DNA of 64,000 nt from a phage: assembly GCA_022143435.1 (NCBI GenBank), contig GCA_022143435.1_3941.1; one strand, 5' to 3'. Under the pieces are notes generated by a model. The model saw only the letters and a program-made list of their open reading frames with translations, had not been told where the DNA came from and ran no database searches. The position numbers and the translations under genes were made by a program. Every line of letters begins with the position of its first letter. Position 1 is the stretch's first letter. This document shows positions 13,319 to 19,427 of this stretch, piece after piece.

Positions 13319-13714
13319 TCATTCAAACACCACCTGACAAGGAACCTGTTTAGTAATAAATTCTTCACAGTGCTCTTTAATGAAGTTTTGTAATGGTACA
13401 CAATCTTGTGCGCAAGTCATTAGCATAATGTACTCTGGATTCATGATGTTTTCAAGACTGTAGAAGACAACATCATCAGATAGTTCGTGACCATCTTCTT
13501 CAGACCAAGTTCCAGTGACTACAGCTAATTTGTCAAGCAATTCATTAGGCAATGCTACACCATCTTCTACAGAATCACTTAGAACATTGTCGCCGATATA
13601 CAATGTGAAGACCGTGTGGAATGTTGAGTATCTTACGTGATTCTTTTCACAAGAGCCACACTCTGAGGCATAATCTTTAATCCACTCTAACTGTTTTTGA
13701 CTCAACTTAATCAT
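13319..13714 (-). CDS. Hypothetical acidic protein
   Basis: ORF. Confidence 0.4.
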   Translation of the reverse strand: MIKLSQKQLEWIKDYASECGSCEKNHVRYSTFHTVFTLYIGDNVLSDSVEDGVALPNELLDKLAVVTGTWSEEDGHELSDDVVFYSLENIMNPEYIMLMTCAQDCVPLQNFIKEHCEEFITKQVPCQVVFE

Positions 13715-13911
13715 AATTTCACCTTAGTTGGTAATGCACTGAATGCTATGACTAACCCTAAAAATGGTTTGAAGCATGACCATAAATCCATCTGACCATG
13801 ATATGAGAAACTCCATTGTGGGTCTGAAAAACCCCATACCATAACACTAACCCCAAAGAAGAAGACTAGAATATGGAGTATGTATATCAACGCTTTTGAT
13901 ATCTTAAACAT
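13711..13911 (-). CDS. Small membrane protein
   Basis: Hydrophobic helices. Confidence 0.4.
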   Translation of the reverse strand: MFKISKALIYILHILVFFFGVSVMVWGFSDPQWSFSYHGQMDLWSCFKPFLGLVIAFSALPTKVKL

Positions 13912-14075
13912 TTTAACTTACCTTTCAATTCACAATAAGAGAGTCCTAAAAAGAACCCTAGTAAGACAGAACCTATGAACAACCCAATAGCACTCTCTGC
14001 CATATCTAACATCCAATAAAAAAGGTGATGTAAGCCTATCAAGACCCACATCACCTTGTCAAGTTTTACATAAGG

Positions 14076-14684
14076 TTATTTTTTCTTACAATTGTCAAAA
14101 TGATATCGAGTCATGTTACCAGCACCACCAGTCATACCACAATGAGGGCAAGTTTTCTTTTTCTTTGGCTTTTTTCCGGCTTCTGACATCTTCTTCCTTG
14201 TTTCTATAGACCTTTTACAACCTTTTGATTTTGTATTGCCTATTTGAGATTCTCCTAACCGTCTTCGATGTTCTTCAGTGAAAACCCTACCTTTATTCAC
14301 AATAGATAGAGCTTTCGAGTTCAAAGCCCTTACCTTTTCATAGTCTCTGGATGATATTTTCCTATCTAGGCCATCATGGGCTAACCTGTTCCATGCAAAC
14401 CATAACTTATGATTGTTTGGATACATCTTAACCAGTAATTTATGAGCTATATAATGCTCTCTAGGTGTAAGTAAAGCAATATTATCTCCACTAATTTTAT
14501 CGCCACCTAGACATACTGGTATGATATGGTGTCTTTCATAACCCTTACCTTGACATTTGTAGTATGTAAGAGGCACACCCCTTTCAGAATGTGCCTTCTT
14601 AATAATTGCATTATATATTAGTTCGTAATTCATTTGTATGCTACATAGAAACCCTATCCTTAATTTCTGCCATCTTAGCGTCAT
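14076..14684 (-). CDS. HNH homing endonuclease (free-standing, abutting 3' end of nrdD); likely start at internal Met ~14633
   Basis: HHIIPVCLGGDKISGDNIALLTPREH...H HNH motif. Confidence 0.65.
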   Translation of the reverse strand: MTLRWQKLRIGFLCSIQMNYELIYNAIIKKAHSERGVPLTYYKCQGKGYERHHIIPVCLGGDKISGDNIALLTPREHYIAHKLLVKMYPNNHKLWFAWNRLAHDGLDRKISSRDYEKVRALNSKALSIVNKGRVFTEEHRRRLGESQIGNTKSKGCKRSIETRKKMSEAGKKPKKKKTCPHCGMTGGAGNMTRYHFDNCKKK

Positions 14685-15609
14685 TCATTCGAGACTGACC
14701 TTTAATTTTTGTGAATGACAAGTACCCGCACACCCTGTTAATCACAGAGATGTCATGTGAATGGCAAACCTCACATTCTTCAACATCAGCCTTTGGTCTG
14801 TTACCACAATGTTCACAGATTGCTAAGTCAAAGTTAAGCCCCTGATAGAAACCTTTCAACATCCCTCTTGTGATACAACTTTTAAGTGCTGTTAAGTTTT
14901 CTGGATTAGCTACCCTGACATACTGGATTCTGCCACCTCTACAGATATGGAAGAATGGCTCTTCTAAGTCCTGCTTCTTAAATGGTGAGATGTCTGCTGC
15001 AACATTCATATGGAAACTGTTTGTAAAGTATTCCTTATCAGAAACACCTTTGATAACGCCAAACATATCTCTGAACTGTTTTAACTGAGTTCCGCAAAGT
15101 GATTCTGCTGGAGTACCATAGACGGCATATAAGAAGCCATCTTCATTTTTAAACTCTTCAGTTTTCATGTTGATGTATGCCAGAACATCGTATGCAAAAC
15201 TACAGCTTCCAACTTCATGAAGTCGTTTACCTTCAGCAAGAACAGATAGCTCATCAAGCGCAGTAACACCAAAAGAAGCTGTGAAGGACTTCACAATATC
15301 CCAACCAACCTTGTCAGTAGGCTTCTTAGTTCCTTTGTACAGACCACCTTGTGTAAATGCAAGAGGGTTAGAACTTGCTGGCATATTAGCAATCATTTCG
15401 TAACGTTTCTTGTGGAAACTACGAATCATCTCTAGGTACTTATCAAGCTCTTTCCAGAAATCTAAACCATTCTCTTTGGTGTACTGATAAATCATTGGTA
15501 AGTTCAAAGATACAGCACCAATGTTAGCACGACCTACATAAAACTCTTCACCATGTTCGTTATGGTATGGTGATAAAAATGCTCTACACTTGTTGTTCAA
15601 GTAAGTTCG
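14641..15609 (-). CDS. nrdD: Anaerobic ribonucleoside-triphosphate reductase, 3' exon (glycine-radical and Zn-ribbon part); 5' boundary approximate
   Basis: C-terminal CEHCG...CEVCH Zn site and RVCGYL glycine-radical motif; ORF track starts on a TTG, reading frame is open up to ~15609. Confidence 0.75.
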   Translation of the reverse strand, partial: RTYLNNKCRAFLSPYHNEHGEEFYVGRANIGAVSLNLPMIYQYTKENGLDFWKELDKYLEMIRSFHKKRYEMIANMPASSNPLAFTQGGLYKGTKKPTDKVGWDIVKSFTASFGVTALDELSVLAEGKRLHEVGSCSFAYDVLAYINMKTEEFKNEDGFLYAVYGTPAESLCGTQLKQFRDMFGVIKGVSDKEYFTNSFHMNVAADISPFKKQDLEEPFFHICRGGRIQYVRVANPENLTALKSCITRGMLKGFYQGLNFDLAICEHCGNRPKADVEECEVCHSHDISVINRVCGYLSFTKIKGQSRMNDAKMAEIKDRVSM

Positions 15610-16329
15610 CTAAGCTTACCCCGCTTTATTCAAGCTGCTTACTGTCGCCAGTAAGTCCAGACTATATCTTCTACTTATTTCTAAGTAGCGTACCATTTCG
15701 AGTCGCTTGACCCTACACCGCTACATTCATCACGGTTAGTCGTTCGGCATTTAGATGTATTCAAACTCATATTCGAAGTTATTATGCTCTTTTACACCCT
15801 TCAATATTGAAGAGATGGTCTTGCGATTGTGTCCAAGTATATTGGATAACTCTCGTATTGACTTAGTAACAATAACTTCCTTTGTCACTTTGTGTGTGGC
15901 TTTCACGGCATATGAACGTTTGTGGAACTTGTAGCATCCGTTCTCATAACCTTCTTTAGCATTCTCAGAATGAGTACCCCATTCTAAGTTAGATGCGTGG
16001 TTATTTAGTTTGTTATCGTCCTTATGTTTTACAATTGGAAGATTATTCGGGTTAGGTACATATTTCTCAGCAACTAACCTGTGGACATACATGTCACGAT
16101 TCTTCTTACCGTAAAACCTTACTTTCATATACCCAGTGTTGGATTTCCACTGCGTAAGCTCTACACCATTTTCCCTAAAGACTTTCCATCTTCAGTGACG
16201 TGATAGTTTGGCATGTAAGACTCCTATGTTGTATAGTTTCTTACATCGTACATCATTTAGCACAGGATTGTCTACATCTGTAGAGTTTCCCTGTTTAGGC
16301 ACGTTTTAGATGAGCTATAGAGCTTGTTA
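15610..16329 (-). mobile_element. Group I intron interrupting nrdD, carrying an HNH endonuclease ORF; boundaries approximate
   Basis: nrdD split into two in-frame halves separated by ~720 bp; segment ~16243-16303 (minus sense CTAAACAGGGAAACTCT...TAGACAATCCTGTGCTAAAT) resembles, from memory, the conserved core of the T4 td group I intron. Confidence 0.65.
15751..16128 (-). CDS. Intron-encoded HNH homing endonuclease
   Basis: HKDDNKLNNHASNLEWGTHSEN HNH motif; located inside the nrdD intervening sequence. Confidence 0.7.
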   Translation of the reverse strand: MKVRFYGKKNRDMYVHRLVAEKYVPNPNNLPIVKHKDDNKLNNHASNLEWGTHSENAKEGYENGCYKFHKRSYAVKATHKVTKEVIVTKSIRELSNILGHNRKTISSILKGVKEHNNFEYEFEYI

Positions 16330-17526
16330 ACCCATCGGTGAAATTACCTTGCCAGAACGCTCAAAAGCTTCTGCTACAGCACCATGACCAGATACACTTA
16401 AGAAATCTGGATACATCGCTTTAGAGCAACACTCTATAGCTTTACTGTACAGGTGTCCTTGACAGATATTCTCATCGTGTCTCTTCTGGTCATAAATATA
16501 AACCAGTTTAGGGAATACAACAGGCTTCTTGCTCTTACCTTGTCCATTCATACGAACATCTAGGAGAGTACTTGCAATCATGTATTGTAGTCGGTTGTCT
16601 TCATTAGACATATCTGAGTCGAGCAACCCAAATGTTAAAGTTGTGAATGCAAAATCCCCACGACTACAAGGTACAGTGTTCAGTTTCATTTCAAGTGACT
16701 GAAAACCTTGAGTTAATTCAATCTGTAGCTGCTCCATGACATAGTTATGGTAATGTTCTTTAGGAATACCATAAGATGCTGCTTTCTCAGCATGGTAACG
16801 TAGAGACTTCTTAGCATACGGTACAAGTACCTTATCAATCTCTGCTAAAGTAAAGCCGCCAAATTGCTGTGCAGTTGCTGAAAGAACTACATCACCAATA
16901 ACCTGTAAGGCTGACAGTACAGACTTCGGTTCACAGTATTCGATGCCAGACATTTCAAAGCCACCTTTCAGTACTTTACCAATGTCAAACAGGCAACAGT
17001 TGATACCACCAAAAATTAGGTCTCTTAAGTCATGGATGTAGATAAACCCTTCTTCAATGGCTTCGAGTTCCTCTGGTGTTAAATGGTACTGCTTAAAGAT
17101 TTCTTTAGTCAGATAACCACGAATAATTGAACCTTTTGTAGAAATTAAACTGCTGTCAAAGTTAGCATTTTCACGGTCACCTAAGAAGAGCGTATCTCTA
17201 GTCTTTTGGTAAAGCTCATCCCAATTTTGAGCAACCTCTTTACGGTAATTTCTATATGTTGAGTAAGACTCATAAATCTCGTGATTGACTTCTGCCAAAG
17301 CACCTTCAACAATACTGTGAATATCATTTACTGAAATGAGTAAATTATTCTGCTTAGTAGATTTTACCAGAATCCTCATAAATGCTGACTCAAGAGCTTG
17401 AGTAACATCTGGTGGGAGTTCTTTATAACCAACCCTATTAGCTGACTTTGTGACTGCTGCTAAAACTTTTTTGATATCAGGTTCTTCGAGTGAGCCATTC
17501 TTTTTAATAATCTGTACTTTGTTCAT
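16327..17526 (-). CDS. nrdD: Anaerobic ribonucleoside-triphosphate reductase, 5' exon (ATP-cone and N-terminal catalytic part); true exon end lies upstream of the ORF stop
   Basis: N-terminal ATP-cone-like segment; continuity with downstream glycine-radical half. Confidence 0.75.
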   Translation of the reverse strand: MNKVQIIKKNGSLEEPDIKKVLAAVTKSANRVGYKELPPDVTQALESAFMRILVKSTKQNNLLISVNDIHSIVEGALAEVNHEIYESYSTYRNYRKEVAQNWDELYQKTRDTLFLGDRENANFDSSLISTKGSIIRGYLTKEIFKQYHLTPEELEAIEEGFIYIHDLRDLIFGGINCCLFDIGKVLKGGFEMSGIEYCEPKSVLSALQVIGDVVLSATAQQFGGFTLAEIDKVLVPYAKKSLRYHAEKAASYGIPKEHYHNYVMEQLQIELTQGFQSLEMKLNTVPCSRGDFAFTTLTFGLLDSDMSNEDNRLQYMIASTLLDVRMNGQGKSKKPVVFPKLVYIYDQKRHDENICQGHLYSKAIECCSKAMYPDFLSVSGHGAVAEAFERSGKVISPMG

Positions 17527-18016: not shown

Positions 18017-19149
18017 TAAGGAACCTCTAAAAATCCACTATTCAAATCATCTACAACAGTATTCAATAAGTACGCACCGTTCTGTTGCTCCTGATTAGCA
18101 TTCTGCTCTTTATCAATTTCCATCTTCTTAATCATATACTTCAAAGGTGGTTCTTTAGGAGCTACAAAATCTCTGGGAATGCCAAACATGTCATACAGCG
18201 GGGCAGCATTATAGTAAACCCACTCATGAAGAAGCTTTGTATTTAAGCCAACTACAGCACGTCCTTCGGAGAAGATATAATACGACCATTTCTCTTCACT
18301 TTCAACTACTTCATCTAAGATTACTTTAATCTCTGGAAGAATTTGTTGAAAAGCTTTCTGCCACTCATCATCTCTTAAAGTTTCTTTTAAAACTTCAATA
18401 TCAATTTTAGTGTGAAGGATTTCGTCAAGCATAATTTTCTGTACCGCTTGAGCAATACCCTGAAATTTATCTTGAGCATCAAGTGCAAAAGTACATGCAA
18501 AGGATGCCATAAAAGATATACCTTCCAGTGCAGTCACTGCAAATAGACCTTTTAGAATCACTTTATGGAAGTGTAAAGGGTCTTTGTCTAGAAGTGAGTC
18601 ACGGACATAACTCAGCCGATAGTTTATACCTTCATCTAGTAATTCTTCGAGAACACGATTCACAGTTTTTAATCGGTCTTGTACAGCAATGTTCTGGTTA
18701 ATCTCATCTAAGATTGTTTCAGGATTTTTAATACATTGTCTTACAATCTCCGAGTAAGTAAGAGCATGTAGGTTTTCAATCTCAGACTGCTTCATAATTG
18801 CAGTTGCATAAATGTCATCAGAGATGAATGGTGCAAAGGCAAACGCTAAGCTCTTAGCAACTTGGGTATCTGCTTCCCACTGCCACTTAAGAATCTCAAG
18901 CATTACACCTGACATTGATGCTGGCACACTCTCAAAATCAAGACGTGATTGCTCAAAAGGGAACTCATCTTCTGACCAATCTTGTGCTTTTTGTTGTTTA
19001 TAGAGTTCAAAGATTTTTGGGTAGTGCTTGTTAAGTGAGTCAAATGTCTTTCTCTCACCACCTAAAAAGATTGGGTGTTGGTTAATCATAGCGTGATTTC
19101 TCCTTTCTCTATCATCTCTAAGGCTTGTTTTCTGTCTAAAACTTCCCAA
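18016..19149 (-). CDS. nrdB: Ribonucleotide reductase class I small (beta) subunit; likely start at internal Met ~19089
   Basis: Size, position next to nrdA; ferritin-like R2-type protein. Confidence 0.8.
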   Translation of the reverse strand: MGSFRQKTSLRDDRERRNHAMINQHPIFLGGERKTFDSLNKHYPKIFELYKQQKAQDWSEDEFPFEQSRLDFESVPASMSGVMLEILKWQWEADTQVAKSLAFAFAPFISDDIYATAIMKQSEIENLHALTYSEIVRQCIKNPETILDEINQNIAVQDRLKTVNRVLEELLDEGINYRLSYVRDSLLDKDPLHFHKVILKGLFAVTALEGISFMASFACTFALDAQDKFQGIAQAVQKIMLDEILHTKIDIEVLKETLRDDEWQKAFQQILPEIKVILDEVVESEEKWSYYIFSEGRAVVGLNTKLLHEWVYYNAAPLYDMFGIPRDFVAPKEPPLKYMIKKMEIDKEQNANQEQQNGAYLLNTVVDDLNSGFLEVP

Positions 19150-19427
19150 TTTTCTTTGTTGAACATCTCATAAGGTCTTGCGTAGATTTTACCATCTGCT
19201 GTAGAGATGTAAGAGATACCAGCAACCCATGAGTCATCCTTTTGTTTTATCATCATATCTGTGCTACTCACATAGTACATCGTTTTCCGAGGCTTGTGGA
19301 GCAAGTATATAGGTCGCTCATGTTTTTCTATTAAATCTTTCATGGTCTCTCCAAAGTTATTTTTAGAGGGTCTTTTACGACCCTCATAGTTATTAAAACT
19401 AAACACCACAACCCTCGCAATAGGCAT
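19086..19427 (-). CDS. Small hypothetical protein between nrdA and nrdB (likely start ~19343)
   Basis: ORF; overlaps neighbours at its ends. Confidence 0.3.
   Translation of the reverse strand: MPIARVVVFSFNNYEGRKRPSKNNFGETMKDLIEKHERPIYLLHKPRKTMYYVSSTDMMIKQKDDSWVAGISYISTADGKIYARPYEMFNKENWEVLDRKQALEMIEKGEITL

Follow-up and report, generated by a model that had tools for sequence, protein, structure and literature searches.

The nrdD gene of a Felix O1-like phage very probably carries two independent selfish elements, a group I intron and a MobE-like endonuclease cassette

Group I introns and free-standing HNH endonucleases in the ribonucleotide reductase (RNR) genes of phages are textbook cases from T4. 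The MobE protein of T4 is a nicking HNH enzyme which nicks the nrdB gene of phages without MobE and spreads with co-conversion, and its own genome is believed to be protected by polymorphisms where it nicks (PMC2790892). HNH enzymes of the I-HmuI type, encoded in introns, promote homing (PMC2988022). For the Felix O1-like phages, the genome paper of Felix O1 reported, correctly for that strain, an absence of introns (PMC3185647), while insertions of homing endonucleases into genes of this group (PMC3728262) and a split nrdD with a homing endonuclease in UAB_Phi87, HB-2014 and JH2 (PMC4837284) have been noted. The GenBank record of phage Meda joins both parts of nrdD as one coding sequence (CDS). 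In the searchable literature, no account of a ribozyme, of splice sites, of insertion at a Cys codon or of a splicing experiment was found for Felix-like phages. The subject here is the nrdD gene, coding for a class III RNR, in a phage DNA of 64,000 nucleotides (contig GCA_022143435.1_3941.1; this whole stretch is hereafter called the window). We conclude with high confidence that it is host to two independent selfish elements, a group I intron and a MobE-like endonuclease cassette.

The source of the window is a phage of the Felix O1-like group (Felixounavirus); a 3.6-kb region of the locus matches about 300 Felix O1-like genomes, the best match being Salmonella phage Sl26 with 96.8 % identity. 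According to Pfam, the upstream piece of nrdD contains the ATP-cone and NRDD domains and the downstream piece NRDD and Gly_radical, whereas the open reading frame (ORF) between them belongs to HNH_3. The original prediction, made from the sequence alone, had described just such an nrdD in two halves on either side of an HNH insert. The exon boundaries were determined from a multiple alignment with relatives, with FO1a and DaR-2019b as intron-less references, and the gene was found to consist of the following parts.

16330..17526, minus strand: nrdD exon 1, 399 codons, ATP-cone and N-terminal half of a class III RNR (ORF, Pfam ATP-cone/NRDD, alignment)
15589..16329, minus strand: group I intron, subgroup IA2, 741 nt (absent in intron-less relatives, RF00028, covariation)
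14641..15588, minus strand: nrdD exon 2, 315 codons plus the stop codon TAG at 14643-14641 (Pfam NRDD and Gly_radical, alignment)

Exon 1 ends with ...CCG ATG GGT (Pro-Met-Gly399), and exon 2 opens with UGU, the codon for Cys400, and holds the motif RVCGY with Gly687. FO1a and DaR-2019b are without exactly 16329..15589 (741 nt), and their junction reads CCGATGGGT|TGCAGAGC. The comparison with intron-less nrdD, which had been proposed as a check, thus shows the insert to be absent precisely and fixes the exon boundaries, and 741 nt takes the place of the approximately 720 bp estimated earlier for the distance between the halves. The intron starts with UAACAAGC and ends with ...CAACAAG, including a terminal G; its first three nucleotides, TAA at 16329-16327, are an in-frame stop which ends the upstream ORF. 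Read without splicing, the N-terminal ORF runs from 17526 to 16327 and the C-terminal ORF from 15600 to 14641. Joining 17526..16330 to 15588..14641 gives an NrdD of 714 amino acids, 695 of which are identical in NrdD of FO1a, with no gaps. The two nrdD genes differ in 133 codons, 114 of them synonymously and 19 non-synonymously, and this preponderance of synonymous differences (114/133) indicates that the interrupted nrdD is under purifying selection.

The insert has the sequence features of a group I ribozyme. When RF00028 was run in E-value mode it matched 15818..15638 with 33.1 bits (E = 2e-6), including the hallmark GAAGAUAUAGUCU, and, on the correct strand and on the other side of the ORF, 16294..16211 with 15.6 bits, covering P4-P6; it was the sole Rfam family that matched the insert significantly. 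Natural copies of the intron without the ORF pass the gathering score of RF00028 (50 bits), with 56.1 bits for BPSELC-1 and 53.6 bits for REP7, and a T4-type nrdD intron scores 72 bits. The window intron minus 425 nt differs from the BPSELC-1 and REP7 copies at 4 and 2 positions, respectively, over 316 nt, and one of these differences is a change from G-C to G·U in P9.2. The helices were assigned as follows.

16309..16336, minus strand: P1 hairpin, exon GAUGGGU (16336-16330) with internal guide GCUCAUC (16315-16309), U·G at the 5' splice site
16249..16303, minus strand: 5' half of the ribozyme (RF00028 partial match, helix model)
16303-16298, minus strand: P3, 5' strand
16294-16290 / 16266-16262, minus strand: P4
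16284-16279 / 16276-16271, minus strand: P5
16254-16249, minus strand: P6, 5' strand
16212..16246, minus strand: P6a hairpin, 8-bp perfect complement of AUGUAAGA (16246-16239) and UCUUACAU (16220-16213)
15600..15759, minus strand: 3' half of the ribozyme (RF00028 33.1 bits, td identity, covariation)
15759-15754, minus strand: P6, 3' strand
15741-15737 / 15664-15660, minus strand: P7, pseudoknotted with P3
15736-15733 / 15720-15717, minus strand: P7.1
15713-15709 / 15704-15700, minus strand: P7.2
15694-15689, minus strand: P3, 3' strand
15688-15682 / 15677-15671, minus strand: P8
15655-15649 / 15644-15638, minus strand: P9
15635-15632 / 15626-15623, minus strand: P9.1
15620-15615 / 15605-15600, minus strand: P9.2

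There is no P2. In addition, the sequence CUCUAUA of the P1 loop (16322-16316) pairs with UGUAGAG of the 3' exon (15588-15582), forming P10, and the minimum-free-energy fold also contains P6a. With the T4 td intron the 3' half shares 70.7 % identity, which, together with P7.1/P7.2 and P9.1/P9.2, places the intron in subgroup IA2. A segment at 16243-16303 which the original prediction had likened to the core of the td intron turned out to be P3-P4-P5-P6 of the ribozyme. P3 was at first drawn as GCCUA/UAGGGU; the Rfam alignment and covariation identified CGUGCC/GGUACG as P3 and the GGGUC stretch as P7.2.

Covariation was assessed with 10 intron cores, each without its ORF, which represent six lineages: three Felix-like phages, two Vequintavirus phages, Phapecoctavirus nieznany, Vibrio phage 1.084.O, T4 td, T4-type sunY and Aeromonas phage TS9. 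Standard pairs were found in 93.0 % of the cells, compared with 32-40 % when the 3' partners were slid by 1-3 columns; double-sided changes occurred in 41 of the 75 pairs, and none of 500 shuffles reached the observed value on any of five measures. Across the 10 introns P1 was 87 % paired, and P3, P4 and P6 were 97-100 % paired, with compensatory changes. The helices of the 3' half were likewise 97-100 % paired with many double changes, except for the inner two pairs of P7.2 (70 %). Covariation was strongest in P3 (5 of 6 pairs), P6 (6 of 6), P8 (5 of 7) and P9.2 (5 of 6), and P7 was invariant.

The P6 loop contains an endonuclease gene, of 464 nt in the window and 465 nt (154 amino acids) in relatives, in which the ORF starts at the ATG at 16214-16212.

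15751..16214, minus strand: I-HmuI-like HNH endonuclease gene, frameshifted (HNH_3, 1U3E, phrog_59)
16183..16185, minus strand: frameshift site, A-run AAA, which is AAAA in Si3, Meda and Sl26 (alignment)

One A is missing in the window relative to all relatives with an intact intron ORF. The original frame (16214..16161) therefore codes for 17 amino acids followed by a stop, and the ORF that remains (16128..15751, 125 amino acids) has the HNH_3 motif (PF13392, 41.7 bits) and is without the N-terminal 29 residues and without an evident ribosome-binding site. This is the HNH ORF that had been predicted at 15751-16128: it is real and I-HmuI-like, but it is only the out-of-frame 3' remnant of a gene for 154 amino acids. 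Adding one A restores the 154-amino-acid protein, which then differs by one amino acid from that of Si3. The intact Si3 protein aligns with I-HmuI (1U3E) over nearly its full length (E = 4e-9, residues 3-151 against 12-168), and the intron endonuclease matches phrog_59 (E = 3e-42). An NCBIfam scan gave no match for either the intron endonuclease or the MobE-like protein described below. A Shine-Dalgarno sequence, AGGAG (16225-16221), is located in the loop of P6a, 6 nt before the AUG, and the 3' strand of P6a takes in the AU of the AUG, which suggests, by analogy with T4 td and I-TevI, that sequestration of the start codon in P6a may regulate translation of the endonuclease.

Introns without the ORF are without 16208..15784; of the ORF they keep, in frame, ATGCCA and the final 33 nt, so that they are to be regarded as deletion derivatives and not as ancestors. 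BPSELC-1 and REP7 share the deletion end-points ATGCCA|AATAAC, which leave a mini-ORF of 12 codons in frame. Among the sampled intron-plus genomes that have no cassette, about one in two has the ORF-less form, which occurs in both Salmonella and E. coli phages. If the end-points are common to all of them, a single endonuclease-less deletion allele would have spread widely.

The second element is a cassette located at the stop codon of nrdD, with the features below.

14073..14647, minus strand: free-standing endonuclease cassette, 575 nt, at the nrdD stop codon (absent in FO1a, REP7 and Meda)
14076..14633, minus strand: CDS of a MobE-like HNH/NUMOD3 endonuclease, 185 amino acids (MNYELIY...), stop codon TAA at 14078-14076
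14022..14057, minus strand: intrinsic terminator, 16-bp stem and T-run, downstream of the cassette
14648..14727, minus strand: 3'-terminal haplotype tract of nrdD, from just past the RVCGY codons to the stop, cassette-linked

The cassette is flanked by a direct repeat TATGTA (14647-14642 and 14072-14067), and its insertion turns the nrdD stop codon from TAA to TAG. The CDS starts at ATG 14633, 7 nt past the nrdD stop codon, as also annotated in Si3, and the longer ORF from the upstream in-frame ATG at 14684 is probably not used. The protein of 185 amino acids is 36 % identical to T4 MobE over 133 amino acids of the N-terminal HNH region, which Mob proteins share (E = 1e-22), carries a NUMOD3 motif and a colicin-type HNH motif resembling those of colicin E9 and pyocin AP41, and matches phrog_655 (E = 4e-57). 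An identical protein in phage Barry is annotated as MobE-like. The free-standing HNH gene that had been predicted at 14076-14684 is consequently a second endonuclease gene, but it abuts nrdD and has no real overlap with it. The idea that the locus holds two endonuclease elements is supported for both, the I-HmuI-like HNH gene of the intron and the free-standing MobE homolog. The terminator is a strong one; in phages without the cassette it directly follows nrdD, and it is annotated at the equivalent place in Meda and XTG1; because the cassette gene lies between the stop codon and the terminator of nrdD, it is likely co-transcribed with nrdD. About 49 Felix-like records carry the cassette, in all cases at the 3' end of nrdD. 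A DNA homolog of the cassette with 72 % identity, annotated as a putative homing endonuclease, was also seen in phiSUSP1 (KT454805.2:50056-50612).

Every combination of the two inserts occurs within the genus:

FO1a: no nrdD intron; intron ORF not applicable; no cassette after nrdD
DaR-2019b: no nrdD intron; intron ORF not applicable; cassette
REP7: nrdD intron; intron ORF deleted; no cassette
BPSELC-1: nrdD intron; intron ORF deleted; cassette
Meda: nrdD intron; intron ORF present; no cassette
Si3, Sl26 and the window: nrdD intron; intron ORF present; cassette

Both inserts are accompanied by divergent tracts in the adjoining nrdD sequence. For the intron, 6 intron-plus alleles were compared with 7 intron-minus alleles. 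In the first 60 nt of exon 2 (+1 to +60), the divergence between intron-plus and intron-minus alleles was 20.6 %, compared with 4-5 % in the background, and within the intron-plus alleles 2.3 %. The other exon bins diverged by 3.5-6.6 %, including the last 60 nt of exon 1 with 4.4 %, the exception being the 3'-terminal bin (10.5 %), which contains the cassette-linked tract.

15535..15586, minus strand: exon-2 tract linked to the presence of the intron, 7 fixed, mostly synonymous differences at +3 to +54

Among these differences, the change from UGC to UGU also gives a better P10. A one-sided tract by the insertion site is expected from co-conversion during endonuclease-initiated repair, a general mechanism (PMC2988022), and the tract in exon 2 is suggestive, although not proof, of such a footprint of homing. 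As for the cassette, all genomes that carry it share a distinct haplotype over the last approximately 80 nt of nrdD. In the last 30 nt the cassette-plus and cassette-minus haplotypes are 25 % divergent, compared with 0 % among the cassette-plus genomes.

Splicing of the window intron, which we infer from its sequence, would begin with folding of the RNA into P1-P9.2, the last U of exon 1 pairing with a G of the guide and the neighbouring guide bases forming P10 with the first 7 nt of exon 2. Exogenous guanosine would then attack the 5' splice site, and the freed 3'-OH of exon 1 would attack after the terminal G, so that CCGAUGGGU is joined to UGUAGAGCA and the NrdD of 714 amino acids is restored. 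The spliced junction is predicted to read CCGATGGGT|TGTAGAGCA. We likewise infer the activities, cut sites and homing of the endonucleases. The intact I-HmuI-like enzyme of the relatives would introduce a nick or a cut close to the insertion site in nrdD without an intron, and in a mixed infection repair from an intron-plus genome would copy the intron together with about 55 nt of the downstream exon. The gene in the window would yield just the 17-amino-acid peptide or, from an ORF that has no ribosome-binding site, a protein truncated at its N-terminus, and the intron is thus, judging by this reading frame, probably no longer autonomously mobile in the window phage. The MobE-like enzyme, by analogy with T4 MobE, probably nicks cassette-less nrdD near the glycyl-radical codons so that the cassette spreads by repair, and the divergent 80-nt tail of nrdD would shield the genome that carries it.

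Several observations weigh against the presence of two mobile elements as described. The window copy gave no match to RF00028 at the gathering score, which is accounted for by the 425-nt ORF splitting the match to the model; the Rfam search that had been suggested for detecting the intron was thus negative on the window at that score and positive as partial matches in E-value mode and on the ORF-less copies. The structure model was built from the window sequence and is thereby favoured over the slid controls, and P10 and the outer pairs of P5 and of P7.2 are weaker across lineages, with 58-82 % paired, which partly reflects the alignment of helices of unequal length. The A deletion is within a homopolymer, where a sequencing error is possible. 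The 13 genomes of the footprint comparison are not phylogenetically independent, and the tracts resembling co-conversion could also have arisen by selection for P10 pairing or as a mosaic from ordinary recombination. REP7 and Meda carry the cassette-linked haplotype without the cassette, and the linkage is therefore not absolute. With respect to the ribozyme, the size of the gap to the controls and the number of compensatory pairs leave little doubt about the structure, and the group I intron proposed for nrdD is upheld by a precise, optional insertion, by RF00028 and by an IA2 structure with covariation.

The missing A stems either from an inactivating mutation of recent date or from an error in sequencing the homopolymer. 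If it is an error of sequencing or assembly, the endonuclease gene is intact and the intron still autonomously mobile. The change is in an A-run (AAAA to AAA), the remainder of the ORF is one amino acid from that of Si3, and the frame is intact in all 37 comparable database copies: the deletion was absent from all 37 records that matched a 76-nt stretch around it, each with 76/77 identities and one gap, a number that is an underestimate, since a megablast query of 76 nt passes over divergent copies without an exact word of 28 nt. A run of three or four bases is on the other hand short for a typical homopolymer error, and decay of the endonuclease is common in this same intron, since roughly one half of the intron-plus genomes in the sample have the ORF-less deletion form, which makes real inactivation plausible. 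An error is on balance unlikely, although it deserves to be kept in mind.

The intron could also be of group I by descent and no longer spliced, leaving nrdD inactive, a loss that might be tolerated given the aerobic nrdAB genes. Both nrdA and nrdB are indeed present, and the decayed endonuclease gene of the window shows the element to be past its invasive phase. However, the ribozyme core is only 2-4 nt out of 316 from other Felix-like copies, and both exons are open, with the excess of synonymous over non-synonymous codon differences to FO1a (114 against 19) given above. A defunct intron in a dead gene is therefore very unlikely.

Another explanation would be that the two parts of nrdD are translated separately, no RNA splicing taking place, and that the two polypeptides assemble to an active reductase, as for the nrdA gene of Aeromonas phage Aeh1, where mobE splits the gene (PMC3653736). 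Most GenBank records list two separate nrdD CDSs, and translation of a product including Cys400 could in principle begin at the in-frame TTG at 15600. This TTG is the only in-frame start that retains Cys400, but no Shine-Dalgarno-like sequence was seen just upstream of it, and the downstream ATG starts annotated in relatives would lose the catalytic Cys. Moreover, the break is inside the finger-loop motif PMG|CR, and a complete, covarying ribozyme, P1, P10 and the terminal G are placed exactly at the junction that is set by the intron-less alleles, features which an insert that is not spliced has no reason to keep. We consider two separate polypeptides to be highly improbable. An intein, a group II intron or another insertion element, although phage RNR genes often contain inteins and other elements too (PMC3653736), is practically out of the question, as the insert opens with an in-frame TAA and its internal ORF has its own frame and its own ribosome-binding site, which exclude an intein, and RF00028 was the sole significant family, the core is 71 % identical to td and terminal inverted repeats and a transposase are absent, which exclude a group II intron or transposon.

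With a spliced intron and a separate cassette as the preferred reading, the MobE-like enzyme might act on the intron in trans, in that a nick approximately 0.9 kb downstream of the intron site would let repair tracts carry the intron along; we regard this as doubtful. The distance of about 0.9 kb and the layout are within the limit of approximately 2 kb reported for T4 (PMC2790892). If true, trans homing would account for the persistence and spread of introns with a frameshifted or deleted endonuclease gene, and would repeat the pathway of T4 mobE and the nrdB intron in the nrdD of Felixounavirus. The frequencies of the two inserts were estimated with a synthetic query consisting of the ORF-less intron, the nrdD tail and the cassette, on an evenly spaced sample in which one row stands for about 4.6 records. 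Seven rows had both inserts, 4 the cassette only, 14 the intron only (7 with the ORF and 7 ORF-less) and 21 neither. Intron and cassette were together in 31 records, and the scaled sample gave about 18 records with the cassette only, about 64 with the intron only and about 97 with neither, these counts being approximate, as they are based on a sample and include RefSeq/GenBank duplicates and close relatives. The two inserts co-occur somewhat more often than independence predicts, but the excess is not taken as evidence of cooperation, since the records are non-independent and the elements only 0.9 kb apart. Contrary to what trans homing predicts, ORF-less introns are mostly found without the cassette (7 of the 14 intron-only rows, compared with 1 of the 7 rows with both).

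The splice junction, between Gly399 and Cys400, is in the motif PMG|CRAFL, which aligns to PMGCRSFL of solved class III reductases. In T4 numbering, Cys400 corresponds to Cys290 and Gly687 of RVCGY to Gly580 of a T4-type NrdD, the thiyl-radical cysteine and the glycyl-radical glycine, respectively. The same PMG|CR site is interrupted in Vequintavirus (241Ecol014PP, A147), in Phapecoctavirus nieznany and in Vibrio phage 1.084.O, phages of genera unrelated to the window phage. Like the window intron, these introns are of subgroup IA2 without P2, have a near-identical P7/P7.1 core and carry a homologous I-HmuI-like HNH ORF in the P6 loop, with 44-49 % protein identity. The sequences of P3, P6, P8, P9 and P9.2 differ from those of the window but compensate, the ORFs, unlike the Felix-type ORF, extend through P6' as far as P7, and they contain the Pfam I-HmuI NUMOD-like domain, which was not detected in the Felix-type ORF. 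The shared site and architecture and the homologous P6 ORF indicate that the intron/endonuclease pair has spread among unrelated phage groups.

Some further observations were made on these phages. The nrdD of 241Ecol014PP is in three pieces, the upstream interruption being ORF-less and about 300 nt long (L009:1339-1660). It matches RF00028 with 28.4 bits (E = 2e-5), below gathering, and is near the site of T4 sunY, about 10 codons downstream of it; two group I introns are thus probable in this nrdD. In Aeromonas phage vB_AdhM_TS9, a complete, closely related IA2-like core (L013:1380-2700) is found among genes annotated as hypothetical proteins, and with a second P7-like motif (AACGACTAT) approximately 1 kb downstream TS9 may hold two introns. 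The record MG065644.1, 'Campylobacter phage A147' (UNVERIFIED), and similar records of about 140 kb are classed as Vequintavirus. Their nrdD intron hardly differs from that of Vequintavirus phages of E. coli, and the Campylobacter host label of the A147-type records may be wrong.

The genes of the locus are all on the minus strand, in the order nrdA, a small ORF, nrdB, a glutaredoxin gene, a small membrane-protein ORF, the split nrdD, the HNH gene of the cassette, three small ORFs and nrdG. The ORF between nrdA and nrdB (window 19086-19427, minus strand, 113 amino acids) overlaps both at its ends and is in the position where T4 has mobE and nrdB.1. When its translation was read by eye, no HNH-like motif was noticed. 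The three small ORFs between the cassette and nrdG (13887-14054, 13711-13911 and 13319-13714) are absent in Si3, in which nrdG follows almost directly after the cassette, and 13700-14020 of the window is a further indel-prone spot of the locus.

The window intron is a new, well-behaved member of the phage IA2 introns and as such ordinary for phage RNR genes. Current understanding is unchanged by it, the split nrdD being already in print and, as an intron-joined CDS, in the record of Meda. The main gain is in annotation: for the window phage and for dozens of Felix-like genomes in the databases, nrdD should be entered as a single joined CDS in which the intron and its exact splice sites are marked, whereas most records have two ribonucleotide reductase fragments and spurious small ORFs. 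Felixounavirus also offers a natural series of the homing cycle, with the empty site, the intact element, the frameshifted element (the window) and the element with its ORF deleted in frame, and the fact that four unrelated phage groups have the same intron/endonuclease pair just ahead of the codon for the catalytic Cys illustrates horizontal spread to a highly conserved target.

Among the systems described earlier, the nrdD (sunY) intron of T4 is in the same host gene, is of subgroup IA2 without P2 and has a very similar P4-P5, and a stretch of 42 nt in P7/P7.1 of the T4-type nrdD intron is 97.6 % identical to that of the window. It differs in its site, which is after about codon 179 of T4 NrdD and not before Cys290, and in its ORF, which is in the P9 region and codes for I-TevII, a GIY-YIG endonuclease (PMC2988022) and not an HNH enzyme. 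The T4 td intron resembles that of the window in that the ORF is looped out of P6 and P7.2, P9, P9.1 and P9.2 are parallel, but it is in the thymidylate synthase gene, has a P2 and codes for I-TevI, a GIY-YIG enzyme. I-HmuI from the DNA polymerase intron of Bacillus phage SPO1 (1U3E), an HNH nicking enzyme, is the closest solved relative of the intact intron ORF, although sequence identity is low and the target gene and host phages are different. T4 MobE and the protein of the cassette have in common that they are free-standing, dependent on upstream transcription and encoded beside an RNR gene with polymorphic flanks, and a cassette located approximately 0.9 kb away from an intron whose endonuclease gene is defunct is the layout that permits trans homing in T4 (PMC2790892). 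Unlike MobE, which has 141 amino acids and targets the 5' end of nrdB, the cassette protein, a putative nicking and mobile enzyme, has 185 amino acids, would target the 3' end of nrdD and has a NUMOD3 motif and a Cys-rich C-terminus. The nrdA gene of Aeh1 is likewise an RNR gene interrupted by an HNH gene, and many Felix-like annotations look the same, but the Aeh1 gene has no ribozyme and gives rise to two polypeptides (PMC3653736), whereas the ORF in the window is flanked by a complete ribozyme.

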